Positions 2,071-41,358 of a DNA stretch of 45,276 bases are shown piece after piece. The first letter of the stretch is position 1, and every line of letters starts with the position of its first letter. Under the pieces are notes generated by a model. The model saw nothing but the letters and a program-made list of their open reading frames with translations, ran no database searches and was not told the origin of the DNA. Both the position numbers and the translations under genes were made by a program. Source of the DNA: Bacilli bacterium. GTDB taxonomy: Bacteria > Bacillota_I > Bacilli_A > RF39 > UBA660. The stretch covers positions 1 through 45,276 of the forward strand of contig JAQUFI010000001.1 in NCBI GenBank assembly GCA_028684735.1. The letters run 5' to 3'.

Positions 2071-2919
2071 TCATCTACCTTTATACTTTAAATATTCATT
2101 ATAAACATCACTCTTTTTAAGATGACGATCTTTACTAACAGCTTTTATTGCATCCATTACTTTATATCCATCAGCAATATACTCTTCAATATGTTCAATA
2201 AGTGTCCAATTGTCATAGTTTTCCCCAGTATTATTACCAGCTACCATTAAAACAATTTCTCCTTTAATGTCAACAATTTGTTCTAAAATGCTTTTGACAC
2301 TCCCTCTAAATACCTCTTCATATTTCTTAGTTATTTCCCGGGAAATACATATTTCCCTATTTCCCATAATATCTAAGACATTTCCCAAAGTTTTCTGAAT
2401 ACGATGAGGAGCCTCATAAAAAATTAAAGTTGCAGTTTCCTTTTCTAAACTTTCTAATTCTTCTTTTCTTTTAGTTTCAGTACTATTTAAAAAACCATAA
2501 AAGAGAAATGGCATTGGTTTAATTCCAGACATCGTTAAAGCTGGAATTAAAGCTGTTGCTCCAGGTAAAGACACCACATTATAACCTTTTTCGATAACAT
2601 ATTTGGCCATTTCATAACCAGGGTCACTTATAATAGGAGTACCTCGATCACTTACTAGTGCGATATCATCACCACTACTTAAATAATTTAGTGCTAACTC
2701 AAGATTCTTTTTCTCATTATGTTCATGATTAGCTATCATTTTTTTCTTAATTTCTAATTTCTTTAATAATAACCCTGTAACCCTAGTATCTTCCGAAAAA
2801 ATTACTTTAACCTCTTTTAAAACATTGATTGCTCTTAAAGTAATATCATCCATATTTCCAATTGGGGTTGGAATTAAATATAAAGTAGGACTATTATCAT
2901 AACTCTTCTGTGACATCAA
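2071..2919 (-). CDS. rsmI: 16S rRNA (cytidine1402-2'-O)-methyltransferase RsmI
   Basis: LYLIPTPIGNMDDITLRAINVLKEV..., tetrapyrrole-methylase fold, typical length (282 aa). Confidence 0.9.
   Translation of the reverse strand: MMSQKSYDNSPTLYLIPTPIGNMDDITLRAINVLKEVKVIFSEDTRVTGLLLKKLEIKKKMIANHEHNEKKNLELALNYLSSGDDIALVSDRGTPIISDPGYEMAKYVIEKGYNVVSLPGATALIPALTMSGIKPMPFLFYGFLNSTETKRKEELESLEKETATLIFYEAPHRIQKTLGNVLDIMGNREICISREITKKYEEVFRGSVKSILEQIVDIKGEIVLMVAGNNTGENYDNWTLIEHIEEYIADGYKVMDAIKAVSKDRHLKKSDVYNEYLKYKGR
2333..2346. promoter_or_regulatory. Perfect Noc-binding-site (NBS) palindrome ATTTCCCGGGAAAT inside rsmI
   Basis: Exact match to the B. subtilis NBS consensus. The 16-bp TATTTCCCGGGAAATA spans 2332-2347. 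Two further ATTTCCC half-sites lie at 2351-2357 and 2359-2365. Confidence 0.6.
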
Positions 2920-6527: not shown

Positions 6528-8273
6528 CTATTGATATTGAACAATATCTCCAAAGATATTTTTTATATCATCCTTATTATCTTTTTTAGTGTTTTTTAAT
6601 ATTTCTTGTATTTCTTTAGTTTCCTCAATATATTTAAATTCTTGTAATTTTGAATTATATATTTTTTTTATTTTTTCCCAATCTTTAGAACAAGTAGCAA
6701 TTACTTTATAATCCGTTTTATAAACCTTTTTAAAAATTTTCTCGATATTTAAAATGTTTTCATTAAAATAATTAGTAAGCTTTTCATTTTCATAAACAAA
6801 AATTAAATTTTTTTCTCCAATTGCTTTAAATTTACCATCCAAAATAATCGAAACAATCTCACAATAATTTGAATCTAATAATAGAGGTCTTAATAATTCC
6901 AAACTTTTTTTAAACTCCATAAATTTTTTCTTATCAAAAGCTGCTAAGGTGTTATTTATTCTTACTTCTTTTACTTTTTCTAATTGAATTTGTAAATTTT
7001 CATCAATTACCCTTGTTATTATTTTTTCACTAATTTTTTCACATTCAACGAAGGTTTCTTTTTTACTCGATTGATTTATTTCTTCTTTTTTAACAAGTGA
7101 AATATTTTCTGATTTTTGTTCAAGTTTTAAACTTTCATTAGTAAGATTTTTTTGTTTAGGTTCTTCTTTTTTACTATCAAATTCAATTGTTATTTCGTTA
7201 TTTTTATTTATTAAGTTAATAATAACTAATTCAAGCATTAATTTAGGATTATTACTATTTTTTATTTCTAAAATTAGATTATTAAATTCTTTTATCATTA
7301 ATAACAATTTAGTTTTATTTGTCTTATTGCTAGAATCCTCATATTCCTTAACATATTCATTGTTTTCTTTAAAATAATTAGGAACTGTTATATATAATAA
7401 TATGTTTTTTAAATAATATATTATTTCTTCTGATAATTTATTAAAATTTTTACCTAATTCATTATAAGCATCAATTAAACTTAATAAATATTGAATATTT
7501 TCATCAAATAGCGCATCAATAAATAATTTAATTTCTTGTTGGGTTATTGTTCCGTTTATTTCATGAATATCGTTAGAAGTAATATTATTATCGGTGTATG
7601 AGAACACTTGATCAAGCATGCTAATTGCATCGCGCATACCACCATCTGATAAGCGAGCTATTTCTAAGATAGCTTGTTCTTCTATTTTTATTTTTTCCTT
7701 TTCCGCAATATCTTTTAATCTTTCAACGATTTTATTTACCCCAATTTTTTTAAAATCAAAACGTTGGCATCTTGATAAAATAGTAGCTGGAATTTTATGA
7801 GGTTCAGTTGTTGCTAAAATAAAAACAACATGTGATGGGGGTTCCTCTAATGTCTTCAATAAAGCATTAAATGCACTATTAGTCATCATATGAACTTCAT
7901 CAATAATGTAAACTTTATATTTCCCAAGCGAAGGGACTAAATTAACTTTACTTTTTAACTCCCTAATTTCTTCAACTCCGTTATTAGAGGCTGCATCTAT
8001 TTCAATAATATCTACTGATTGTTTTAAATTAATTTGTGTACAATTTACACACTCATTACACGGTTCAATACCATTTAAATGTTCACAATTGATTGTTTTA
8101 CCTAAAATCTTAGCGACACTTGTTTTTCCAGTCCCTCTAGGTCCTGTAAATAAGTATGCATGATTTAATCTATTACTTAATATTGAATTTTTTAATGTTT
8201 TAATAATCACATCTTGTCCAAACACTTCTTTAAAATTCAATGGACGATATTTTCTATACAAAGCTTGGTACAA
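6528..8273 (-). CDS. dnaX: DNA polymerase III subunit gamma/tau
   Basis: YQALYRKYRP..., Walker A GPRGTGKTS, zinc module CNECVNC, SRCQRF. Likely TTG start at 8273, 8 nt after GGAGG. The ORF-track extension to 8366 overlaps tadA. Confidence 0.9.
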   Translation of the reverse strand: MYQALYRKYRPLNFKEVFGQDVIIKTLKNSILSNRLNHAYLFTGPRGTGKTSVAKILGKTINCEHLNGIEPCNECVNCTQINLKQSVDIIEIDAASNNGVEEIRELKSKVNLVPSLGKYKVYIIDEVHMMTNSAFNALLKTLEEPPSHVVFILATTEPHKIPATILSRCQRFDFKKIGVNKIVERLKDIAEKEKIKIEEQAILEIARLSDGGMRDAISMLDQVFSYTDNNITSNDIHEINGTITQQEIKLFIDALFDENIQYLLSLIDAYNELGKNFNKLSEEIIYYLKNILLYITVPNYFKENNEYVKEYEDSSNKTNKTKLLLMIKEFNNLILEIKNSNNPKLMLELVIINLINKNNEITIEFDSKKEEPKQKNLTNESLKLEQKSENISLVKKEEINQSSKKETFVECEKISEKIITRVIDENLQIQLEKVKEVRINNTLAAFDKKKFMEFKKSLELLRPLLLDSNYCEIVSIILDGKFKAIGEKNLIFVYENEKLTNYFNENILNIEKIFKKVYKTDYKVIATCSKDWEKIKKIYNSKLQEFKYIEETKEIQEILKNTKKDNKDDIKNIFGDIVQYQ

Positions 8274-8337
8274 TTCAATCACCTCCACACCATTTATTAT
8301 AACATTTATAAGGGTATAATAAAAGGAAATAATTTTA

Positions 8338-8781
8338 TTATTTCCTTTTAGTTTTAAAAAAATCACTTAATAATTTTTGAGATTCTTTTTTATATAATCC
8401 CTCTACTATTTCAATATTATAATTATTAATTATTTCTTTTAATATATTATTTGTACTAGAAACAAAACCAAACTTTTCTGAGTTTGTTGCATAAACAATC
8501 TTTTTTATTCTAGATTCTAATATTGCTCCAAAACACATTAAACAAGGTTCTAAAGTTACATACAATATACAGTCATCTAAATGCCAACTTTTTAACTTTT
8601 TACAAGCTTCTTCAATTGCTAAAATTTCTGCGTGATGAGTTGCTGTTTTGTTTTTTTCTTTTTTATTATGTGCTTTAGCTATTACCTTATCATTCTTTAC
8701 AATCACTGCCCCAACCGGTACATCATCTTTTATATAGCTTTTATTAGCTTCTATTAAAGCTAATTTCATATATTTTTCCAT
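8338..8781 (-). CDS. tadA: tRNA-specific adenosine deaminase
   Basis: HAEILAIE and PCLMCFGA deaminase zinc motifs. Probable ATG at 8781 (MEKYMKLAL...). The ORF-track start at 8793 is a TTG. Confidence 0.9.
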   Translation of the reverse strand: MEKYMKLALIEANKSYIKDDVPVGAVIVKNDKVIAKAHNKKEKNKTATHHAEILAIEEACKKLKSWHLDDCILYVTLEPCLMCFGAILESRIKKIVYATNSEKFGFVSSTNNILKEIINNYNIEIVEGLYKKESQKLLSDFFKTKRK

Positions 8782-8799
8782 TATATCACCCAATAATTA

Positions 8800-8877
8800 A
8801 AATAGCACACACATTTAGAGGTTTTTAAGGCTGCTATCTTCCGATTCTGACCTGATTCAAACATAAATGTTGTGCCT
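8800..8877 (-). ncRNA. ffs: Small (4.5S-type) signal recognition particle RNA
   Basis: The minus-strand RNA reads GGCACAACAUUUAUGUUUGAAUCAGGUCAGAAUCGGAAGAUAGCAGCCUUAAAAACCUCUAAAUGUGUGUGCUAUUUU. It carries the domain IV signature CAGGUCAG...C-GGAA-G...AGCAGCC with a GGAA tetraloop closed by AUC/GAU. The 5' GCACAACAUUUA pairs with the 3' UAAAUGUGUGUGC. A U-tract sits at the 3' end. The upstream promoter is TTGATT (8911-8906), 17 nt, TATATT (8888-8883). Confidence 0.75.
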
Positions 8878-8959
8878 TTTATAATATATACCATAATTTA
8901 TAAAAAATCAATTTAAATTAAATTATTGTCCGAGAAATGTTTTTTAAGCATTTTATATA

Positions 8960-8975
8960 TGTTTCACGTGAAACA
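8960..8975. promoter_or_regulatory. parS site 1 (TGTTTCACGTGAAACA, perfect palindrome)
   Basis: Matches the Firmicute parS consensus TGTTNCACGTGAAACA 16/16. With flanks it forms the 18-bp palindrome ATGTTTCACGTGAAACAT. Confidence 0.8.
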
Positions 8976-9010
8976 TAACTTTTAATTTTAATTATATATA
9001 CTATTTTTTA

Positions 9011-9026
9011 TGTTTCACGTGGAACA
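9011..9026. promoter_or_regulatory. parS site 2 (TGTTTCACGTGGAACA)
   Basis: Reverse complement is TGTTCCACGTGAAACA, the classical B. subtilis parS sequence. Confidence 0.8.
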
Positions 9027-9129
9027 TGACTTTGAAATTAATGTTTTTTTGTTTAATTATGATCAATAATATAAGTATAACATTCTATTATGTTGATTAT
9101 TTTTTTAAATTTAAAACATAACATACTAA

Positions 9130-9145
9130 TGTTTCACGTGGAACA
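9130..9145. promoter_or_regulatory. parS site 3 (TGTTTCACGTGGAACA)
   Basis: Identical 18-mer ATGTTTCACGTGGAACAT as site 2. Shares the 3' flank AACTTTTAA with site 1. Confidence 0.8.
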
Positions 9146-9236
9146 TAACTTTTAACTTAAATATTATATAATTATTAATCCATTCATTAAAAAACTACAT
9201 TACATATACAATTTTTGTTTTATATTTTCTAAAAAC

Positions 9237-9250
9237 ATTTCCCGGGAAAT
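9237..9250. promoter_or_regulatory. Perfect Noc-binding-site (NBS) ATTTCCCGGGAAAT within the parS array
   Basis: Exact NBS consensus. The palindrome extends to 24 bp (AAAACATTTCCCGGGAAATGTTTT, 9232-9255). Confidence 0.6.
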
Positions 9251-9285
9251 GTTTTGTGGATGTTTTATATATATTTTACTATTAA

Positions 9286-9301
9286 TGTTTCACGTGGAAC
9301 A
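9286..9301. promoter_or_regulatory. parS site 4 (TGTTTCACGTGGAACA)
   Basis: Same 18-mer as sites 2 and 3, in the same orientation. Confidence 0.8.
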
Positions 9302-9330
9302 TAATACATTAGTTATGGTGTTTAATATGT

Positions 9331-9364
9331 ATTAAAAAAATAATGTTCTAATAGAACATTATTT
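9331..9364 (-). terminator. Rho-independent terminator of gyrA
   Basis: AAATAATGTTCT-AAT-AGAACATTATTT, a 12-bp stem (9338-9364), followed on the minus strand by a T-run. Confidence 0.6.
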
Positions 9365-9385
9365 ATATTAATATGTTATTTTTGA

Positions 9386-9401
9386 TGTTTCACGTGAAAC
9401 A
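9386..9401. promoter_or_regulatory. parS site 5 (TGTTTCACGTGAAACA, perfect palindrome)
   Basis: 16/16 consensus match, located 3 nt downstream of the gyrA stop codon. Confidence 0.8.
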
Positions 9402-16738: not shown

Positions 16739-16876
16739 AAATTCCTCCTTTTAAAAAATCAATTTTTATATTATTTTTTATTAAATATTATTATTATAGA
16801 TGTGGAAATGGTGGAAAACTTTTTACTGCATTATTTACTATCAAAAAATTAAAAATTTATCCTCTTTTTATCCACT
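16739..16876. other. oriC downstream module (dnaA-dnaN spacer): DnaA boxes plus AT-rich candidate unwinding element
   Basis: Tandem boxes TGTGGAAAT (16801-16809) and GGTGGAAAA (16810-16818), and TTATCCACT (16868-16876). About 50 bp of nearly pure A/T lies at 16750-16800, including (ATT)n abutting the boxes. Confidence 0.65.
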
Positions 16877-18227
16877 ATTTTATTTTGTTAATAATTTTTT
16901 CAATTTCATTTTGCAATTGTGAATCTTTTGTTAATTCTTTAGTTATTTTTTCGACTGAATGCATAACTGTAGTATGATCTTTTCCTCCAAATTCACTACC
17001 TATTCTAGCAAAAGGCTCTTCTAAATAAATGCGACAAATATACATTGCGATTTGACGCGGAACACTAATATTGGCTGTTCTTTTTTTACTTTTCAAATCA
17101 TCGACAGTAATATTATAATTATTAGCGATTAATTGTTGTACTTGATCAATTTTATTTTTCGAAATAATGCTTTTTACAAAGTAATCTTTTAATGCTTCAA
17201 TCGCTAAATCTAAAGTTATTTCAGATCCGTTCATGATTGTTGCATAAGCATAAACTCTATTAATAGCTCCCTCTAATTTTCTTATATCGCTAGTACAATT
17301 ACTGGCAATATAATCTCTTATTTCTTTTGGAAAATCAAACATCATTTCATATGCTTCTATTTTATTATCAATAATATTCATTCTCAAATCAAAATCTGGT
17401 GGAAAAATATTAACTGTTAGACCCCAATTAAATCTTGTTCGAAGATTGTCTTCTAATTTTCTTAAATCATCAGGAGAGCGATCAGAAGCAATAATAATTT
17501 GTTTTTTGTTATTGTGTAAATCATTAAAGGTGTTAAAAAACTCTTGTTGAGATGTTGGTGCAATTTCTAAATATTGAATATCATCTATAATTAACACATC
17601 TAAACTACGATATTTTTCTTTAAATTTATCCACAATCATAAAATTATTCTTATTACTTTTATTTTTATATAATTCCACAAAGTCGTTTACAAAATCATCA
17701 CTGGTTATATATAAAACCCTTTTATTACTATTTTCTACAATATAATTACCAATAGCATGCATTAAGTGAGTTTTTCCAAGACCACTATTTCCATATATAA
17801 ATAAAGGATTGTATATTTGACCTGGTTTTTCAGCAACAGCTAAAGCATTATATTTTGCAAATTTATTACTTTCCCCAACAACAAAATTATCAAAGGAATA
17901 TTTAGGATCCAAATTAGAAATATCATTATCTGCGGGAACTCCCATATTATCAGTATCAATAACAATGTTTTGTTCCATTTCTTCTTCTGTGATATATTCA
18001 ATTTTAAAATTTGAACCAGTTATTTCATTAAATAATTTATCAATTAATTCTTGATAATTACTTTTTAAGTGTTTTTTATGAATGGGCATTGGAACTAATA
18101 TTTTTGCATAATTATCATTAATTTCAATTAATTTAGTTTCAGCAAACCAAGCATCATATAATAAAGGTTGTTTTAATTCTTCTTTAATTTTATCTAAAAA
18201 AGAATCCCATATAACTTCAATTTTCAA
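16875..18227 (-). CDS. dnaA: Chromosomal replication initiator DnaA
   Basis: Walker A GNSGLGKTHL, box VII, C-terminal DNA-binding helix GGKDHTTVMHS. TTG start preceded by a GAGGTGG SD. Confidence 0.96.
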   Translation of the reverse strand: MKIEVIWDSFLDKIKEELKQPLLYDAWFAETKLIEINDNYAKILVPMPIHKKHLKSNYQELIDKLFNEITGSNFKIEYITEEEMEQNIVIDTDNMGVPADNDISNLDPKYSFDNFVVGESNKFAKYNALAVAEKPGQIYNPLFIYGNSGLGKTHLMHAIGNYIVENSNKRVLYITSDDFVNDFVELYKNKSNKNNFMIVDKFKEKYRSLDVLIIDDIQYLEIAPTSQQEFFNTFNDLHNNKKQIIIASDRSPDDLRKLEDNLRTRFNWGLTVNIFPPDFDLRMNIIDNKIEAYEMMFDFPKEIRDYIASNCTSDIRKLEGAINRVYAYATIMNGSEITLDLAIEALKDYFVKSIISKNKIDQVQQLIANNYNITVDDLKSKKRTANISVPRQIAMYICRIYLEEPFARIGSEFGGKDHTTVMHSVEKITKELTKDSQLQNEIEKIINKIK

Positions 18228-18292: not shown

Positions 18293-18506
18293 TGTGGAAA
18301 AAACTTTTAAATAACAACATATTTTCAACTTTTCCACAATAATGGTGGAAAATAAAAAAAAATTAATTTATTGTATAATTTTTCCACAAAAACTGTGGAA
18401 AAAGGATTAAGTCATTATATTACCTAATCTAAAATTTTCTTTTTTTGTGGAAAAGTATGTTTATTATTTGCTGTTTTGCAAAAATATCAATTTAAATAGT
18501 GGATAA
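18293..18506. other. oriC upstream module: cluster of seven DnaA boxes between dnaA and rpmH
   Basis: TGTGGAAAA at 18293-18301, TTTTCCACA at 18330-18338, GGTGGAAAA at 18344-18352, TTTTCCACA at 18380-18388, TGTGGAAAA at 18394-18402, TGTGGAAAA at 18446-18454, AGTGGATAA at 18498-18506. Two head-to-head pairs are separated by 5 nt. dnaA and rpmH are divergent, and gene orientation switches here. Confidence 0.8.
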
Positions 18507-22630: not shown

Positions 22631-24505
22631 ATGGAATATGAGGTAATTGTTGTCGGAGGAGGACATGCAGGGTGTGAAGCAGCTTTAGCTTGTGCTAGAA
22701 AGGGTCATAAAACACTTTTAGTAACAGGAAATATTAATAATATTGCGGATATGCCTTGTAATCCATCTATTGGTGGAAGTGCTAAAGGAATTGTTGTTCG
22801 TGAAATAGATGCTTTAGGTGGCGAAATGGGTAAAGTAGCTGATCGTTCACATATTCAAATTAAGATGTTAAATAATGGGAAAGGCCCAGCTGTTCGTGCC
22901 TTAAGATCACAAGCAGATAAACAAGTATATCCAAAAGAAATGTTAAAAGTTTTAGAAAATCAAGATAATCTAGAAATCTTAGAAGCAATTGTAGAAGATT
23001 TAATTGTTGATAATGATACCATTAGTGGAATAATTTTAGAAAATAATAAAAAAATAACTAGTGAAATTGTTATTTTAACAACAGGAACTTATTTAAGACC
23101 TTCGATTATGGTAGGAGATACTCGTCGTAATGAAGGTCCACATGGAGAAAAACCTAGTTTATATTTAAGTAAAAATCTAGCTAAACTTGGTTTTGAAATT
23201 ATTAGATTAAAAACAGGAACCCCACAAAGAATTAAAAAGGATACAATTGATTTTAGTAAAGCTAAAATTGAAAATGGTGATAATTGTTTTCATACATTTA
23301 GTCATTATCAAAAACCACAATATAAGATAGAAGATCAAGTTCCATGTCATTTAATATATACAACCGAAGAAACACGAAAAATTATTCAAGAAAATTTAAA
23401 TAAATCAAGTATGTATGGAGGATTAGATGATATTGAAGGGGTAGGTCCTAGATACTGTCCATCAATTGAAGACAAGATTGTTCGTTTTAGTGATAAAGAA
23501 AAGCATCAATTATTTTTAGAACCAGAAAGTAGATATACTGATTCAATATATATTCAAGGGTTTTCAACCAGTATGCCATATGATGTTCAAGATCAATTAG
23601 TAAAAAGTTTACCTGGTTTAAAAAATGCTAAAATTTTAAAATATGCATATGCTATTGAATATGATGCAATCTATCCAACGCAATTAAAACCATCCCTTGA
23701 AACAAAAAAAATAAACAATTTATTTACAGCTGGCCAAATAAATGGGACTAGTGGTTATGAAGAGGCTGCTGGACAAGGTTTAATTGCAGGTATTAATGCT
23801 TCATTAAAATTAGAAGGAAAAGATCCTTTAATTTTAAAAAGAGATGAAGCATATATTGGAGTTTTGATTGATGATTTAGTAACTAAAGGAGTAAGAGATC
23901 CATATCGTTTATTAACATCAAGAGCTGAATATCGTTTATTATTACGACATGATAATGCAGATTTAAGACTAACTGAGTATGGTTATCAAGTTGGCTTAAT
24001 CGATGAAGATAGATATACCTTTTTTAAAAATAAAAAAGCTAAGATACAGGAATTAGAAAATAAATTAATAAAATATCGTATAAATCCAACAAAGGAAATA
24101 AATAATTATTTGCTTGAAATAAATAGTACTAAATTAAAAGATGGATCAACTTTATATGATTTATTAAAAAGGCCAGAAATTAATATTGAAAAGTTATCTA
24201 AATTTATCGAAATTGACTATGATTTAGAAATAATTGAACAAGTTGAAATCAACAATAAATATGAAGGTTATATCAATAAGGTAAAAAAAGAAGCTCAAAA
24301 AATGAGTAATTTAGATAATAAATTTATCCCAGAAGATATCGATTACAATAAAATTCATAATTTAGCTAGTGAAGCAAAACAAAAACTCAATGAAATAAGG
24401 CCAACTTCAGTTGGTCAAGCTTTGAGAATAAGTGGAATTAATCCAAGTGATATATCAATCTTAATGGTATATTTAAAGAAGGAATATAATAATGACCGTA
24501 AATGA
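22631..24505 (+). CDS. mnmG: tRNA uridine 5-carboxymethylaminomethyl modification enzyme MnmG
   Basis: VIVVGGGHAGCEAA FAD motif, GPRYCPSIEDK, 624 aa. Confidence 0.96.
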   Translation: MEYEVIVVGGGHAGCEAALACARKGHKTLLVTGNINNIADMPCNPSIGGSAKGIVVREIDALGGEMGKVADRSHIQIKMLNNGKGPAVRALRSQADKQVYPKEMLKVLENQDNLEILEAIVEDLIVDNDTISGIILENNKKITSEIVILTTGTYLRPSIMVGDTRRNEGPHGEKPSLYLSKNLAKLGFEIIRLKTGTPQRIKKDTIDFSKAKIENGDNCFHTFSHYQKPQYKIEDQVPCHLIYTTEETRKIIQENLNKSSMYGGLDDIEGVGPRYCPSIEDKIVRFSDKEKHQLFLEPESRYTDSIYIQGFSTSMPYDVQDQLVKSLPGLKNAKILKYAYAIEYDAIYPTQLKPSLETKKINNLFTAGQINGTSGYEEAAGQGLIAGINASLKLEGKDPLILKRDEAYIGVLIDDLVTKGVRDPYRLLTSRAEYRLLLRHDNADLRLTEYGYQVGLIDEDRYTFFKNKKAKIQELENKLIKYRINPTKEINNYLLEINSTKLKDGSTLYDLLKRPEINIEKLSKFIEIDYDLEIIEQVEINNKYEGYINKVKKEAQKMSNLDNKFIPEDIDYNKIHNLASEAKQKLNEIRPTSVGQALRISGINPSDISILMVYLKKEYNNDRK

Positions 24506-25196
24506 ATTTATTGATCATTTAAAACAATTAGGTATCGATATTAATGATAAACAACTAAATCAATTAGAAATTTATTATGAATTATTAATTGAATGGAATC
24601 AAAAAATTAATCTAACAACTATTGTTGATAAGAAACAAGTATATTTAAAACATTTTTATGATTCCTTAACAATAAGCAAGATAATTAATTTAGAAGAAGA
24701 ACAAAGTTTATGTGATATTGGAACAGGGGCTGGATTTCCTGGCTTAGTTTTAAAAATTTTGTTTCCTAACTTAAAAGTAACGTTAGTAGACTCTTTAAAA
24801 AAGAGAATTTATTTTCTTAATACTGTTATTCAAGAATTAGATTTAAAAGACATTGAAACTATACATGATCGTTGTGAAGAATATGCATTAAAAAATCGTG
24901 GTAAATATGATGTAGTTACAGCTCGAGCAGTTGCACCAATAAACATCTTATTAGAATATTCAATTCCAATGGTAAAGGTTAATAAACATTTTATTGCTAT
25001 GAAGGGGAATATTGAAAAAGAAGAAAATACCTATCACAACGCCATCACCTTATTAAATATTAAAGAAGAAGAAATGATAAAATTTTTATTACCATTTGAA
25101 AACAGTAATCGTACTTTAATTAAGTTTAAAAAGGAATCAAAAACCAATCATAAATATCCGAGAAAATTTAGTGATATAAAGAAAAAGCCGCTTTAA
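24492..25196 (+). CDS. rsmG: 16S rRNA (guanine527-N7)-methyltransferase RsmG
   Basis: WNQKINLT..., DIGTGAGFPG SAM motif, ARAVA motif. Overlaps the mnmG end. Confidence 0.93.
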   Translation: MTVNEFIDHLKQLGIDINDKQLNQLEIYYELLIEWNQKINLTTIVDKKQVYLKHFYDSLTISKIINLEEEQSLCDIGTGAGFPGLVLKILFPNLKVTLVDSLKKRIYFLNTVIQELDLKDIETIHDRCEEYALKNRGKYDVVTARAVAPINILLEYSIPMVKVNKHFIAMKGNIEKEENTYHNAITLLNIKEEEMIKFLLPFENSNRTLIKFKKESKTNHKYPRKFSDIKKKPL

Positions 25197-25274
25197 AGAG
25201 GGCTTTTTTTATAATAAACAAAAATTGGGAAATACTATTATATATTAAAGAAATGAATTATTTCCCAAAAAGTA

Positions 25275-25303
25275 TTGAATTATTTCCCAAGATATAGTAT
25301 TAT
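25275..25303 (+). promoter_or_regulatory. Candidate sigma-A promoter of the noc-like gene
   Basis: TTGAAT (25275-25280), 17 nt, TATTAT (25298-25303). The spacer contains ATTTCCCAA. Confidence 0.5.
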
Positions 25304-25326
25304 ATATTTGAAAGAATAAAAAGGGG

Positions 25327-26994
25327 TTGTGTAGTGTGGATATTGAAAAAAAGATAACGGAATTAAATCTTGCTGATATCTTACCTAATCGCTTTCAACC
25401 AAGGATTAAATTTGGTGAAGATGCGATTAATGAATTGTCGGAATCAATCAAAGAACATGGAGTAATTCAACCAATTGTTGTTAGAGCAATTGGTGATAAA
25501 TATGAAATCATAGCTGGTGAAAGAAGATATAAAGCCAGTGTTTTAGCAGGAAGAAATACAATACCTGCTATTGTTACGGATTTAAATGATAAAGATAGTG
25601 CTGAAGTGGCTTTAATTGAAAATGTTCAAAGACAAGATTTAACACCAATTGAAGAAGCAATATCATATAAAAAAATTATTGATATGGGATTTACTCAAGA
25701 GCAATTAGCAAGCAAATTAGGAAATAAGCAATCGACGATAGCTAATAAGTTACGATTATTGAATTTAAATGAAGATGTTCAAGAAGCTTTATTAGAAGGA
25801 AAAATATCAGAAAGACATGCAAGATCAATTTTAAGACTTAACAGTCAACAACAAACAGAAATATTAAACAAAGTATTATCTGAAAGGTTAACGGTAAGAA
25901 AAACTGATCAAGAAATAGACAAATTATTAAATGAAAAAAGTGTTGATACGTCAATTGATAATGTGGAGTTTTTAGATGTTAGTTTATTTAATCAAAAGAA
26001 AGAAGAAGAACCTTCTTCGGTAACTATTGATTCTATTTTAGGAATAGAACCAATGGAAGAAAGGGTTAGCCCAATGAATAATGAAAATGAACAAACAACT
26101 TTAGGAATTTTTAATAATTCTATTCAATTCCCAAGTGGACCAATCCTTAATGAAGCAATTAAAACGCCAATTAATATACCTAGTAATCCGATTCAAGATG
26201 AAGAAACCCCAAATATTCCTAATTTTGAGGTAGAAATTCCTGTTGATGGGGTTAATCCAGGCTTCATGAATATTGAAAAAATTGAAACAGAAGCACAAAA
26301 TATAAATGAAGATAAACCATTAGCTGATGTGAATTTGTTATTACAACCAGAACCATTTAAAAATAATCAAGATGGTTATGATTTTAACCTATCACAATCA
26401 GAAAACACATCTCATGAACCACGTTTTTTTAATAATTTTAAAGAAGAAAATAATATCGAACCAATAAATAATTTTAATTTTTCTATTGAGGAACCAAAAA
26501 CAAATGAAATAAATAATAATCTTGTAATGGAACAACCAATTGAATCTGAAAAACCATTGGAAACAGAAATATTTCCACAACCAGAAATAACTACAGAAGC
26601 ACCATTGGAATCGTTTACACCAACAGTCCCAATTGTAAAGTCACAACCAGAAGTATTTCCACCAACCGCACCAATTGTTGAATCACAACCAGAACCAATA
26701 AACCCTATAACATTTGATATTCCAATGGAAAATAATATAACTAGTGATAATCAAATAAGTAATGAACCTACCAATAACTTTGATTTTAATATCGAACCAA
26801 TAAATAATATAAATTCTAATATTGGCCAACCAGTTATGTCAGAAACATTTTACCAAGGTGAAAAAACATTAAAGGCAGCTATTGATATTATTAGAAAATG
26901 TGAATCAAGAATCAAAGATATAGGATTTGAGGTCGAAATTGAAGAAATAGACTTTGAAGATATATATCAAGTAATATTTAAAATAAATAAGTAA
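25327..26994 (+). CDS. noc: ParB-family protein of the Noc (nucleoid occlusion) type with a ~300-aa low-complexity insertion
   Basis: ILPNRFQPR, IIAGERRYKAS (CTP-binding GERR box), HTH QSTIANKLRLLNL...ISERHARSIL, and C-terminal IKDIGFEVEIEEIDFEDIYQVIFKINK resemble B. subtilis Noc (from memory) more than Spo0J. Position directly after rsmG. The start is TTG at 25327 or GTG at 25336. An in-frame TGA at 25309-25311 blocks any upstream extension. Confidence 0.8.
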   Translation: MCSVDIEKKITELNLADILPNRFQPRIKFGEDAINELSESIKEHGVIQPIVVRAIGDKYEIIAGERRYKASVLAGRNTIPAIVTDLNDKDSAEVALIENVQRQDLTPIEEAISYKKIIDMGFTQEQLASKLGNKQSTIANKLRLLNLNEDVQEALLEGKISERHARSILRLNSQQQTEILNKVLSERLTVRKTDQEIDKLLNEKSVDTSIDNVEFLDVSLFNQKKEEEPSSVTIDSILGIEPMEERVSPMNNENEQTTLGIFNNSIQFPSGPILNEAIKTPINIPSNPIQDEETPNIPNFEVEIPVDGVNPGFMNIEKIETEAQNINEDKPLADVNLLLQPEPFKNNQDGYDFNLSQSENTSHEPRFFNNFKEENNIEPINNFNFSIEEPKTNEINNNLVMEQPIESEKPLETEIFPQPEITTEAPLESFTPTVPIVKSQPEVFPPTAPIVESQPEPINPITFDIPMENNITSDNQISNEPTNNFDFNIEPINNINSNIGQPVMSETFYQGEKTLKAAIDIIRKCESRIKDIGFEVEIEEIDFEDIYQVIFKINK

Positions 26995-27012
26995 GCAAGG
27001 CTTACTTTTTAT
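26989..27012 (+). terminator. Rho-independent terminator of noc
   Basis: AAGTAAGC-AAG-GCTTACTT followed by TTT, overlapping the stop codon. Confidence 0.6.
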
Positions 27013-35338: not shown

Positions 35339-36793
35339 ATGAAAAAAATTTCAACTTGGATTATTATATTATTGCTTAGTGTAGCAATCTTTTGGTTGGG
35401 TTTTGATTATAAAACATCAATAAAACCTAAAACTTATTATCAAGTCTATCTTGACGATCAAGTATTAGGTGTTATTAAATCAAAAGAAAAACTATATGAT
35501 TATATTAACAACAAAGGTAATTATTATAAAAAAGAATTAGGTGTTGATACTGTTTATCCACCAAATGGATTAGAAGTTAAGAAAATAACAACTTATGATA
35601 AAAAGGTTGATAAGGTTAATGATGTTTATAACCGTATTGATAAATTAAAACCTTTTACTATTGAAGGTTATCAATTAACAATTAATAAAGAGGATGAAAA
35701 TGAAATAATATATATAACTGATCCTAAGATATTTGAAAATGCTGTTAAAAATACGATTACTGCTTTTATTGGAGAAAACAATTATAAGTTATATTTAAAT
35801 GAAGAACAGAAAAAGATTGAAACAGTGGGTAATATTATTGATAATGTCTATGTCGAAGAAGATTTAACGTTAAAAAAGACTAAAATTTCAGTTGAAGAAA
35901 CAATTTATATCGATGAGGATGAATTATCTCAATATCTATTATTTGGAACGAATGAGAAAAATCAAACTTATACTGTAAAATTAGGTGATACGATTGATCG
36001 AATTGCTTTTACTAATAAGATTAACGTAGAAGAGTTTTTTATTAGTAACCCTGAATTTAATAGTATTGATAATTTATTATTTCCTGGTCAAGAAGTATAT
36101 GTAGGAATCATCGATCCTGTTTTAAGTATTGTTGTTGAAGAAACAAAAGTAGAGGATGTTGAAAGAAAATATCGTACGGAATACCGTAAAGATGCTAGTA
36201 GGGTTATTGGTGAAGATGAAATTGTTCAAGAAGGGGTTAGTGGCCTAGATCGTGTTACCACTTTAGTTAAATCAGTTAATGGTAACGTTGTTATTGTTGA
36301 ACCTGATACTACTATAGAAATAAAACCATCAGTAACCGAAGTTGTTTTGGTTGGAACGAGATATCAACCAAGCGTTGGATCTTTATATTCATGGGGATGG
36401 CCAACACAAGGTGGTTGGATGATTACATCTTATTATCAATATCGAAGTAATCCATTTACCGGTAGGCGTGAATTACACGCAGCTATAGATATTGCAGGAC
36501 CAGGTTATGGTTCTAATATCTATGCAGCTAATAATGGTACTATTTATAAAGCTCAATGGCACAATAGTTTAGGTTATTATATTATCATTAATCATAATAA
36601 TGGGTATTATAGTTTATATTCCCACTTATCTAGTATTAGAAAAGGTAAAATAGGTTCGGTAGTTGGTCGTGGTGAAGTAATTGGTAGTATGGGTATGACA
36701 GGAGATGCAACGGGTCCTCACCTTCATTATGAAATATGGGTAGGAGTACCGTTTAATGGTGGATATCAAACCAATCCACTGAATTATTATTAA
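35339..36793 (+). CDS. Membrane-anchored M23 metallopeptidase with LysM and G5 domains
   Basis: N-terminal TM segment. LysM-like YTVKLGDTIDRIA. G5-like VEETKVEDVERKYRTEY...VLVGT. M23 motifs HAAIDIA and GPHLHYEIW. Confidence 0.85.
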   Translation: MKKISTWIIILLLSVAIFWLGFDYKTSIKPKTYYQVYLDDQVLGVIKSKEKLYDYINNKGNYYKKELGVDTVYPPNGLEVKKITTYDKKVDKVNDVYNRIDKLKPFTIEGYQLTINKEDENEIIYITDPKIFENAVKNTITAFIGENNYKLYLNEEQKKIETVGNIIDNVYVEEDLTLKKTKISVEETIYIDEDELSQYLLFGTNEKNQTYTVKLGDTIDRIAFTNKINVEEFFISNPEFNSIDNLLFPGQEVYVGIIDPVLSIVVEETKVEDVERKYRTEYRKDASRVIGEDEIVQEGVSGLDRVTTLVKSVNGNVVIVEPDTTIEIKPSVTEVVLVGTRYQPSVGSLYSWGWPTQGGWMITSYYQYRSNPFTGRRELHAAIDIAGPGYGSNIYAANNGTIYKAQWHNSLGYYIIINHNNGYYSLYSHLSSIRKGKIGSVVGRGEVIGSMGMTGDATGPHLHYEIWVGVPFNGGYQTNPLNYY

Positions 36794-38043: not shown

Positions 38044-38577
38044 ATGATATTTATGAGAAAGTCGATACTATTTATTTTAGGAATGCTGATGATTTATTTA
38101 TTATTAGGTAATATATACACAAATAAGATTGTCATCCCTGATGAGGCAATTCGACTTAGAGTAATACCTCATAGTAATAATAAAAACGATCAAATGATTA
38201 AACAACAAGTATCGATATTATTACAAGATGAGATGTATCATTTGCTTAAAAATACAACGAAAATTGAAGAAGCTCGAAGTATTATTAATAATAATTTAGA
38301 TAAACTTGATATGTCAATTAACAACCTCTTAACAAATAAAAAGTATCCTTATGGGTATCAAGTTAATTTTGGATATAATTACTTTCCTGAGAAGGAATAC
38401 AATGATATTATCTATAATGAAGGTTACTATGAATCCTTATTAGTAACCTTAGGAAATGGTTCAGGGGATAATTGGTGGTGTGTTCTTTTTCCACCATTAT
38501 GTTTATTAGAAGGAACAGAAAGCAATACCATTGAATATAAATTTTTTATTAAAGAAATAATCGATAAATATTTTTAG
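38044..38577 (+). CDS. spoIIR: Stage II sporulation protein R
   Basis: IRLRVIPHSNNKNDQMIKQQV and GDNWWCVLFPPLC are SpoIIR signatures. N-terminal signal/TM segment. Confidence 0.8.
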   Translation: MIFMRKSILFILGMLMIYLLLGNIYTNKIVIPDEAIRLRVIPHSNNKNDQMIKQQVSILLQDEMYHLLKNTTKIEEARSIINNNLDKLDMSINNLLTNKKYPYGYQVNFGYNYFPEKEYNDIIYNEGYYESLLVTLGNGSGDNWWCVLFPPLCLLEGTESNTIEYKFFIKEIIDKYF

Positions 38578-39233: not shown

Positions 39234-40085
39234 ATGATAGTAAACATGAAAGATATGTTGAATAAAGCAAAAAAGGGAAAATATGCAGTACCTCAATTTA
39301 ATATTAATAACTTAGAATGGACGAAATATATCCTTGAGGAATGTCAAAAGAATAATAGTCCAGTTATTTTAGGGGTTAGTGAAGGGGCAATTAAATATAT
39401 TGGTGGCTATAGTGTTGTCGTTAGTCTTATTAAAGAATTAGTTAAGGAATTAAAAATAACAATCCCTGTAGCTATCCATTTGGATCATGGCACAAGTATT
39501 GATTCTTGTATAAAAGCAATTAATGCTGGTTTTACATCAGTTATGTTAGATGCTTCAAAGGAAATATTAGATGAAAATATTAAGTTAACTAAAGAAATAA
39601 TGAGATATGCATCTAAATTTAAGGTTACGGTTGAAGCAGAGATAGGTCATATTGGTGGTACTGAAGATAATGTTACTAGTAATATTATGTTTGCAAAAGT
39701 AGATGAAAGTATTAGATTTACTAAAGAAACAAAGGTTGACTTTTTAGCACCGGCACTAGGTAGTGTTCATGGCTTATATAAAGGCGAACCTAACTTAGAT
39801 TTTAAAAGGATGCTTGAAATCAGTATTAAAACTAGTACCCCTTTAGTCTTACATGGTGGAACTGGTATTCCTGATGATAAAATAAGAGAAGCTATTAGTT
39901 GTGGGATTGTTAAAATTAACATTAATACGGAATTACAAATTGTTTGGTCAAATGCTGTTAAGATGTATTTAAGTAATAATCCTATGGTATATGATCCAAG
40001 AAAGATTATCGGATCAGGTGAAATGGCTATAAAAGAGACAGTTAGACAAAAAATTATCTTACTTGGTTCAGAAAACCAAGCATAG
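39234..40085 (+). CDS. fba: Class II fructose-bisphosphate aldolase
   Basis: YAVPQFNINNLE, HLDHG, EAEIGHIGG, LHGGTGIP. Confidence 0.93.
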   Translation: MIVNMKDMLNKAKKGKYAVPQFNINNLEWTKYILEECQKNNSPVILGVSEGAIKYIGGYSVVVSLIKELVKELKITIPVAIHLDHGTSIDSCIKAINAGFTSVMLDASKEILDENIKLTKEIMRYASKFKVTVEAEIGHIGGTEDNVTSNIMFAKVDESIRFTKETKVDFLAPALGSVHGLYKGEPNLDFKRMLEISIKTSTPLVLHGGTGIPDDKIREAISCGIVKININTELQIVWSNAVKMYLSNNPMVYDPRKIIGSGEMAIKETVRQKIILLGSENQA

Positions 40086-40104
40086 TATATCAGTGGAGGT
40101 ATGT

Positions 40105-41358
40105 ATGAAACAAATAAGAATTAGTGGTGGACATGTTTTAGAGGGAACAATTAGAATTAGTGGGGCAAAGAATAGTGCCGTAGCACTAGTTCCAGCCTCA
40201 TTGTTATCTGATGAAATTGTTAAATTAGATAATGTTCCTAATATTTCTGATATCGATGCCTTAAATGAGATTTTAACTTTTTTAGGTGCAAAAGTAAAAC
40301 GAAATGGTGAATTGATGGAAATTGATTCAAGTGAAGTTGAAAATAAAGGAATCCCTGAACATATATCTAAAAAATTACGAGCATCATATTACTTTATGGG
40401 TGCTTTATTAGGAAAATATAAAAAAGTAGAAATGTATTTCCCTGGTGGATGTTCAATTGGGTCTAGACCAATCAATCTCCATTTAAAAGGATTTGAAGCT
40501 TTAGGAGCAACGGTTATTGAAGAAGGAAATAAATATACAATTTATGCTGAAGAATTAAAGGGTAGTCATATTTATTTAGATATGGCTAGTGTTGGAGCGA
40601 CGATTAATATTATGCTTGCAGCTGTAAAAGCAACTGGTTTAACAATTATTGAAAATGCTGCTAAAGAACCTGAAATCGTCAATGTAGCAACTTTCTTAAA
40701 TCAAATGGGTGCTAAAATAACTGGAGCAGGAACAAGTGAGATAAAAATAACAGGTGTTGATAAACTAGGTAGTTGTTATATGGAAGTTATTCCTGATCGA
40801 ATTGAAACAGGAACTTATGTAATTGCTGGTGCTTTAAGAGGTAAAAACTTAAAAATAGATAATATTATTCCTGAACATATTGAAGCACTTTTAATTAAAT
40901 TAAAAGAAATGGGTGTTAAGTTAGATGTATATGAAGATCATTTAATGATATCGGCTACAGATAATTTAAAACCAGTTAATATAACAACTCAAGTCTATCC
41001 AGGTTTTGCAACTGATTTACAACAACCAATCACAACCTTGTTGACAATGACTAATGGTACTTGTCAATTAGAAGAGACCATCTATGAAAATAGATTTCAA
41101 AATGTTGAATACCTAAATAAAATGGGCGCAGATATAACCATCAAAGATCAATCAATTGTTATTGTAGGACCATCTAAATTAAGGGGAACAACTGTTAAAG
41201 CAACAGATTTAAGGGCGGGTGCTTGTCTTATTCTAGCAGGATTAATTGCTGAAGGAGAAACAGTTATTGAAGAAGTTGAACATGTTCTTCGAGGATACGA
41301 AAACATAATTGAAAAATTAACGGATGTTGGTGCTAAAATTAAATTAGAAGAAATATAA
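40105..41358 (+). CDS. murA: UDP-N-acetylglucosamine 1-carboxyvinyltransferase
   Basis: MKQIRISGGHVLEGTIRISGAKNSAV, active-site GGCSIGSRP, C-terminal RGYENI. Start at the ATG at 40105 after GGAGG. The ORF-track start at 40063 overlaps fba. Confidence 0.94.
   Translation: MKQIRISGGHVLEGTIRISGAKNSAVALVPASLLSDEIVKLDNVPNISDIDALNEILTFLGAKVKRNGELMEIDSSEVENKGIPEHISKKLRASYYFMGALLGKYKKVEMYFPGGCSIGSRPINLHLKGFEALGATVIEEGNKYTIYAEELKGSHIYLDMASVGATINIMLAAVKATGLTIIENAAKEPEIVNVATFLNQMGAKITGAGTSEIKITGVDKLGSCYMEVIPDRIETGTYVIAGALRGKNLKIDNIIPEHIEALLIKLKEMGVKLDVYEDHLMISATDNLKPVNITTQVYPGFATDLQQPITTLLTMTNGTCQLEETIYENRFQNVEYLNKMGADITIKDQSIVIVGPSKLRGTTVKATDLRAGACLILAGLIAEGETVIEEVEHVLRGYENIIEKLTDVGAKIKLEEI

Follow-up and report, generated by a model that had tools for sequence, protein, structure and literature searches.

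In Bacillus subtilis, Noc requires an N-terminal amphipathic helix that ties DNA bound at Noc-binding sites (NBS) to the membrane (PMC4331003). All Noc homologues in that study were predicted to have the helix, and residues K2, S4, F5, R7, F8, F9 and K14 of the B. subtilis helix were tested (PMC4331003). The 10-residue helix, α2 and an 8-residue loop are specific to Noc, and closure of the N-terminal domains, driven by cytidine triphosphate (CTP), has been proposed to release the helix (Jalal et al. 2021, PMC8429893). Another ParB-family protein, KorB of plasmid RK2, is a CTP clamp and repressor that is disordered between its DNA-binding and dimerisation domains (PMC11790492). Here, we describe a Noc-like gene in a 45,276-nucleotide stretch of a Bacilli bacterium genome (contig JAQUFI010000001.1, assembly GCA_028684735.1), hereafter the window. 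The 552-residue product is likewise predicted to be disordered between these two domains.

We compared the protein with its relatives, with solved structures and with profile models of the ParB and Noc families. Judged from these comparisons, it is very probably a member of the Noc lineage that binds NBS, lacks the N-terminal helix and shares with its whole family a disordered tether with conserved motifs. We further lean, with a good deal less assurance, towards the gene being the Noc orthologue of uncultured low-GC gut Bacilli, with an effector contact that would have been relocated to the tether. In the literature that we searched, a Noc without the helix or with a long linker is not described, nor does one appear in a 2025 survey of the ParB-CTPase fold.

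Domain architecture and family extent

The original prediction, made from the sequence alone, described two Noc-like parts separated by about 300 residues. Pfam, the signature motifs and AlphaFold2 bear this out. The two ParB domains occupy the N-terminal part, and both the ISERHAR signature and the C-terminal IKDIGFEVEIEEIDFEDIYQVIFKINK are present (coordinates in Table 1). A Pfam scan of the whole protein gave no match beyond these two domains, residues 205–507 included. We built an AlphaFold2 model with a 37-sequence alignment of the family, in which residues 1–204 and 510–552 are confident and the predicted local distance difference test (pLDDT) score is below 50 across about 205–507, an island at 305–340 excepted. 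The interval first proposed for the insertion, 25939–26847, equals residues 202–504.

Within a search space of 5.8 billion proteins, the best 120 matches are all 416–649 residues long and carry the same two Pfam domains. Many of them were assembled independently, and one 605-residue cluster was found on 23 contigs. A scan of GTDB species genomes returned 597 relatives, of which 80 were kept as related loci. These 80 are metagenome-assembled genomes (MAGs) of uncultured 'Bacilli', 'Tenericutes' or 'Mollicutes', with sources that include the guts of human, mouse, rabbit, bird and ruminant. Complete orthologues (71, from GTDB species genomes) span a continuous range of lengths from 311 to 804 residues.

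The exact protein is known from one contig, as might be expected if an assembly artefact, a chimera or a pseudogene explained the long linker. However, the reading frame is unbroken, and the same architecture recurs in hundreds of homologues that were assembled independently. GC content and GC content at third codon positions (GC3) of the linker equal those of the flanking domains, which argues that the linker is native coding sequence. We therefore regard an artefact, a concern raised with the original prediction, as extremely unlikely given the long architecture of the best 120 matches and the 71 orthologues.

Both CTP-binding motifs, GERRYKA and ENVQRQDL (of the ENxQR type), are invariant in the family. 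The motifs are intact, and CTP binding is predicted. The original prediction had pointed out the Lys of GERRYKA, which replaces the third Arg of the GERRxRA motif. The substitution is real, and invariant among the long-linker proteins, but it does not set them apart: the Spo0J of the same clade, encoded beside soj (7905–8801 in locus L078, and also in L009, L072 and L080), reads GERRVKA, again with Lys. The Arg-to-Lys change is thus a trait of the lineage and gives no evidence of an altered switch.

Noc lineage and site specificity

The top NCBIfam match is the Noc model TIGR04285 (275.7 bits, against 167 bits for the generic ParB model), and the nearest solved structures are those of Geobacillus Noc (7NG0 and 7NFU). 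The match of the full-length protein covers positions 1–199 of the 255 in the profile. With the linker spliced out, it spans 1–255 of 255 at 288.7 bits, and the last ~48 residues are therefore a Noc-type C-terminal domain. The protein shares with Noc of B. subtilis, Geobacillus thermoleovorans and Staphylococcus aureus (TIGR04285; 7NFU, 7NG0, 7OL9) the ParB-type CTP-binding domain, a helix-turn-helix (HTH) domain with the QSTIANKLRLL and (I/T)ERHAR signatures and this C-terminal domain. The position after rsmG near oriC and the presence of NBS palindromes in the genome are also common to both. It differs in the absence of the N-terminal amphipathic helix, α2 and loop, in reading GERRYKA rather than GERRWRA, and in its linker between the DNA-binding and C-terminal domains, which is short in canonical Noc and here is acidic, about 300 residues long, predicted to be disordered and equipped with family-specific motifs.

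We calculated a neighbour-joining tree from the N-terminal ~195 residues (numpy distances, 200 bootstraps). The long-linker proteins are monophyletic, with 99.5% bootstrap, and their sister group is Noc of Geobacillus and Bacillus. The other side of the tree (80% bootstrap) holds B. subtilis Spo0J and the four Spo0J paralogues encoded by the same bacterial clade. Thus the phylogeny, named at the outset as a check on whether this is an ordinary Spo0J/ParB, places the protein with Noc. The original prediction had offered a choice between a Noc whose contact has moved into the linker and a new ParB/Noc subfamily. The family is indeed a new, monophyletic subfamily, within the Noc lineage, and the two alternatives are not exclusive.

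NBS specificity resides in residues Q173, K179, K184 and R201 (Caulobacter ParB numbering; Jalal et al. 2020, PMC7383237), and for binding to NBS it is enough to have Q173 and R201 with a single Lys, at either 179 or 184 (PMC7383237). In our alignment these positions of the Noc-like protein read Q, K, N and R. In the Spo0J paralogues of the clade, the first position is R and the fourth is G, S or A.

We considered whether the protein could instead be the chromosome-partition ParB (Spo0J) that binds five parS sites at 8960–9401. The NCBI name (ParB/RepB/Spo0J family partition protein) would suit this, as would the facts that it is the sole ParB-family gene in the window and that the parS cluster lies 16 kb off. 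Spo0J and chromosomal ParB proteins (TIGR00180; 6SDK, 1VZ0) also have the same fold and domain order. However, their C-terminal domain is a different one, and Gln and Arg occupy the positions of R173 and G201 of Caulobacter ParB, so that the parS-type residues are missing. The N-terminus (MDIEKKITELNLADILPNRF) does not contain the LG(R/K)GL ParA-binding motif, no parA adjoins the gene and no ORF (open reading frame) in the window encodes a Walker-A ParA. Moreover, a separate soj-spo0J pair adjoins the noc-like gene in relatives: the three genes are consecutive in L009, L072, L078 and L080, where the second ParB is 44–49% identical. Over the first 195 residues, identity to the Spo0J of the clade is about 45–49%. 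In L078 this Spo0J has a LGRGL ParA-binding N-terminus (RKALGRGLEELF) and parS-type residues, and it adjoins soj. With the tree also setting the protein apart from Spo0J, we consider a partition ParB very unlikely. The gene directly follows rsmG in 55 of 71 loci, and some relatives have the order rsmG-noc-soj-spo0J. We conclude that it is the Noc-lineage paralogue, which most likely binds NBS.

The N-terminus

The ORF listing gives a single forward-strand ORF at the locus, from TTG 25327 to 26994. We prefer the GTG at 25336 as the start, since it is better spaced than the TTG from an AAAGGGG ribosome-binding site. The public record P0001 ('MAG: Bacilli bacterium'; 552 residues, 100% identity) uses the same GTG. 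The stretch before ILPNRFQPR is 15 residues from the GTG or 18 from the TTG, and an in-frame TGA at 25309–25311 blocks any extension. The very short N-terminus of the original prediction and its block by the TGA therefore stand, and its length of ~19 residues is corrected to 15 or 18. Genetic code 4, in which TGA would encode Trp and the N-terminus would be longer, was ruled out, as TGA terminates 7 of the 41 ORFs and table 11 gives a coding density of 89%.

Residue 6 of the protein aligns to residue 27 of Geobacillus Noc, with five residues before it, in agreement with the suggestion that a Noc-like amphipathic N-terminal helix is lacking. Across the related loci (71 complete orthologues, 75 related ORFs) most proteins likewise have ~15 residues before (I/L)PNRFQPR. 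By alignment, the ~26-residue segment comprising helix, α2 and loop is absent from this protein and from the family.

The linker and its conserved motifs

The linker is rich in N (14.5%), E (13.9%), P (11.9%), I (11.2%) and F (6.6%), with a net charge of −42. Its composition and low pLDDT agree with the N/E/P/I/F-rich, disordered chain first described. Both pairs of recurring motifs noted at that time are found: NNFNFSIEEP/NNFDFNIEP is one, and the other, TPTVPIVKSQPE/PPTAPIVESQPE, corresponds to a 42-bp tandem repeat. In two relatives (P0031 and P0036) the linker is enlarged by many tandem (I/V)EP(S/T)(V/I)P(T/S/E) units, and repeat slippage therefore seems to be what makes linkers differ in length. 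Among 72 linkers the length is 62–554 residues (median 248). The chains are poor in Lys and Arg and rich in Pro, and net charge per residue is below −0.05 in 70 of the 72 (median −0.13). Identity to relatives is 72–89% for residues 1–204, 49–71% for the C-terminal domain and 14–36% for the linker.

Some of these features would suit a passive spacer. According to this explanation, the linker of a Noc arose by neutral slippage expansion in an AT-rich genome and membrane tethering was lost. The protein would then act only as an NBS-bound clamp, for example as a roadblock, as a chromosome organiser or, in the manner of KorB, as a regulator of promoters that include its own. The ranges of length and identity are consistent with it, as are the tandem repeats, far larger in P0031 and P0036 than here. 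The richness in Asn suits the AT bias, GC3 does not differ between linker and domains, and NBS half-sites in the promoter (see below) fit a regulatory role.

Against a passive spacer stand three conserved islands, M1, M2 and M3. Three linker residues (L335, F364 and F365) are invariant among 37 diverse members, and seven more (P282, G309, F310, I316, A320, I323 and L336) are nearly so. The concern that the linker might be variable junk is therefore answered in favour of conservation. Profile hidden Markov models (HMMs) of the individual blocks detected M2 in 40 and M3 in 25 of the 71 species-level orthologues. The basal L072, where the gene stands beside soj-spo0J, is among those with M2. Other subclades carry conserved linker islands of their own. 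M3 is missing in about two thirds of species, as a passive spacer would allow; M3 as a universal stand-in for the membrane helix is ruled out by the same count.

We then searched a profile of M1–M3 against 1.84 billion representatives, which returned 150 hits (clusters at 50% identity) at E ≤ 0.001. Of 143 new matches, 114 carry a ParB domain; most others are fragments with the same C-terminus and a few are low-complexity sequences. Since the profile matches essentially family members only, the module is exclusive to the family. Its only match among PDB sequences was a designed mini-protein (E=0.47). With no Pfam match in the linker, only this mini-protein from PDB and essentially only the family from the 1.84 billion representatives, no function can be transferred by homology of the linker. 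The family-specific module in 150 clusters, the acidity of nearly all linkers and the retention of a linker in small genomes, such as the 1.2-Mb circular MAG L019, speak further against a passive spacer, which we consider unlikely.

M2 scores pLDDT 53–76 in the full model and 84–87 when the M1–M3 region is folded alone. We asked whether the moderate score in the full model reflects docking of M2 on the folded domains, but the region alone gives the same helices at equal or higher pLDDT. The structure of M2 is therefore local, and the models give no support for docking. A self-contained, acidic amphipathic helix of this kind would suit a Noc that recruits a protein partner. M1, M2 and possibly M3 would then dock FtsZ, FtsA, SepF, a Min protein, SMC or DnaA, and occlusion would rely on direct contact between proteins, as for E. 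coli SlmA, and not on tethering to the membrane. Docking motifs typically take the form of short conserved islands within a disordered chain, and the acidity of M2 disfavours lipid binding. However, the motifs have no counterpart among known families or solved structures, and an extensive search has revealed no protein partner of B. subtilis Noc (PMC4331003). We rate a purely partner-recruiting Noc as rather improbable.

The highest hydrophobic-moment windows of the linker are M3 and M2. M3 reaches 0.46–0.59, compared to 0.42 for the B. subtilis Noc helix, and its ..PGKFFNLxEE resembles the RFFGL core of that helix (..SFSRFFGLGEK). Internal membrane-targeting segments of this type have a precedent in E. 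coli RNase E, in which the amphipathic piece lies in a disordered chain. The N-terminus of B. subtilis SepF (..KLKNFFSMEDEE) has what we take to be the same basic-FF-x-hydrophobic-acidic pattern as M3. Both proteins are unrelated to the Noc-like protein, and the candidate segment M3 has fewer basic residues. The N-terminal helix and linker of SepF also combine a short amphipathic segment with a long disordered region (10.1101/2022.08.26.505433). Membrane binding by M3, proposed from its sequence, is a tentative assignment that we regard as doubtful on balance.

A proposed relocation of the effector contact

The reading that we favour, a Noc with its contact relocated to the tether, has several points against it. 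The curated cut-off of TIGR04285 (315 bits) is not reached by the full protein (275.7 bits), nor by the spliced one. The profile comparison advised in the original prediction hence went only partly as expected, with the Noc model ahead of the generic ParB model and the score under the Noc threshold. A linker that masks the true Noc score was rejected as the cause, because removal of the linker still leaves 288.7 bits. The third specificity position holds Asn instead of the Lys of canonical Noc. Linker identity is just 14–36% and length varies ninefold, and much of the chain may be neutral low-complexity expansion. Neither M2 nor M3 is a universal effector, given their detection in 40 and 25 of the 71 orthologues only. 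M3 has a net charge of 0 to −1 in a strongly acidic chain, compared to +2 for the B. subtilis helix, and is therefore poorly suited to anionic membranes. In addition, AlphaFold2 gives M3 no helix (pLDDT ~60).

In this reading, the protein would nucleate on NBS and then close into a CTP-dependent sliding clamp, as in Noc. The tether, which lies between the DNA-binding and dimerisation domains, would take over from the N-terminus in contacting the membrane or a partner. M3, (K/R)FF(N)(L/F)xEE, would be the likeliest weak in-plane membrane segment, either moved or arisen anew. The older and more widespread M2, a short acidic amphipathic helix, would more likely be a docking site for a partner protein or for a further Noc clamp. 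Repelled by DNA, the long acidic chain would project the motifs away from the nucleoid surface, and it would also enlarge the lumen of the clamp. Expression would be autoregulated through the NBS half-sites in the gene's own promoter.

At its fullest, this would be a re-wired Noc in a large uncultured branch of Bacilli: a CTP clamp loaded at NBS, with output through tether motifs and a self-repressed promoter. We put this forward tentatively. It is similarly conjectural that the motifs comprise a relocated or convergent membrane FF motif and a helical one on which a division or chromosome protein would dock.

In this clade, which spans at least 75 species-level genomes and 150 clusters at 50% identity, NBS sites and the clamp are retained and the helix is absent. 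Were the contact carried by the tether, control of membrane binding by CTP would have to differ from that in Noc, as the motif would no longer lie beside the CTP gate, and the length and charge of the linker would be functional parameters of a ParB-family clamp. A re-wired Noc would represent a second, mechanistically distinct way for such a clamp to couple DNA to the envelope or divisome. As a natural experiment, the family bears on the evolution of nucleoid occlusion, and it is a source of short testable motifs.

Binding sites and a candidate operator

The window contains two perfect NBS 14-mers. Across 934 kb (the window and the 80 related loci) there are 14 perfect NBS, where 0.0015 are expected from composition, an excess of ~10,000-fold, and the flanks of the sites extend the palindrome. 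After the NBS inside rsmI come three ATTTCCC half-sites in direct orientation, at 2351, 2359 and 2380; the whole group lies within 55 bp of coding sequence (…MGNREICISREI…).

Five perfect parS sites (ATGTTTCACGTG[A/G]AACAT) start at 8960, 9011, 9130, 9286 and 9386. The cluster (8960–9401) is intergenic, between the gene for the signal recognition particle (SRP) RNA and gyrA, ~9 kb from oriC. A separate parS-binding Spo0J is therefore implied elsewhere in the genome.

Three NBS half-sites, which form a candidate operator, also precede the Noc-like gene, one of them in the spacer of a promoter-like sequence and two further upstream (Table 1). Upstream of noc in relatives, half-sites occur at 0.96 per 160 bp compared to a background of 0.045, a 21-fold enrichment, and of 73 related loci at least 36 keep their layout (L002–L045 and others). 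Their position in the gene's own promoter suggests autoregulation through this candidate operator. KorB likewise acts at promoters, and regulation by the Noc-like protein is suggested only by the positions of the sites. KorB differs in being plasmid-borne, in its OB sites and in partnering KorA through its DNA-binding domain, and has no sequence relation to the linker.

Table 1 Features of the Noc-like gene, its product and the associated sites (positions in the window).
Feature	Position	Strand	Details
Perfect NBS ATTTCCCGGGAAAT	2333..2346	.	Inside rsmI (2071-2919, -)
Perfect NBS ATTTCCCGGGAAAT	9237..9250	.	Among parS sites
Candidate operator, 3 x NBS half-site TATTTCCCAA	25225..25290	.	Half-sites at 25225 (-), 25259 (+), 25281 (+)
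Promoter-like TTGAAT-17-TATTAT	25275..25303	+	NBS half-site TATTTCCC (25281-25288) in spacer
Noc-like gene	25336..26994	+	552 aa plus stop; alternative TTG start 25327; identical to public protein P0001
ParB N-terminal (CTP-binding) domain	25351..25629	+	Residues 6-98; Pfam PF02195 (ParB_N), E=1.2e-32; AlphaFold2 confident
GERRYKA (CTP motif)	25516-25536	+	Within ParB_N domain
ParB HTH DNA-binding domain	25633..25926	+	Residues 100-197; Pfam PF17762 (HTH_ParB), E=1.5e-31
Recognition helix QSTIANKLRLL	25729-25761	+	Within HTH_ParB domain
Linker, acidic, Pro/Asn-rich, predicted disordered	25948..26856	+	Residues 205-507; AlphaFold2 pLDDT <50; net charge -42
M1 INIPSNPIQDE	26170..26202	+	Residues 279-289; consensus (Y/F)NIPxxPI(I/V)E; P282 nearly invariant
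M2 VNPGFMNIEKIETEAQNINEDKPLADVNLLLQP	26251..26349	+	Residues 306-338; consensus NPGFM(D/N)(I/V)xKIExxAxDI…KPxA(D/N)xxxLL
M3 HEPRFFNNFKEE	26413..26448	+	Residues 360-371; consensus PGKFFN(L/F)xEE; candidate membrane-targeting segment
42-bp tandem repeat, 1.9 copies	26614..26694	+	Encodes TPTVPIVKSQPE / PPTAPIVESQPE
Noc-type C-terminal dimerisation domain	26857..26991	+	Residues 508-552; helix plus two strands; AlphaFold2 pLDDT 85-91
Terminator-like hairpin	26989..27007	+	–

Genomic setting

The window has ~26% GC and spans the replication origin. GC skew switches near 18 kb. Six near-consensus DnaA boxes (five TTTTCCACA and one TTATCCACT) lie at 18293–18506, between dnaA (16875–18227, −) and rnpA (18798, +). 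The coincidence of this cluster with the skew switch identifies oriC. Upstream of the Noc-like ORF the order is mnmG (22631–24505) and then rsmG (24492–25196). A small bacterial SRP RNA is found at 8792–8884 on the reverse strand (Rfam RF00169, 61 bits).

Further genes in the window encode SpoIIR (stage II sporulation protein R; 38044–38577), a LysM-G5-M23 peptidase (35339–36793) and an enzyme of the 5-enolpyruvylshikimate-3-phosphate (EPSP) synthase family, of MurA/AroA type (40063–41358). Given these three genes, the source organism probably keeps cell-wall genes and at least some sporulation genes and is not wall-less, though relatives are labelled Tenericutes or Mollicutes.

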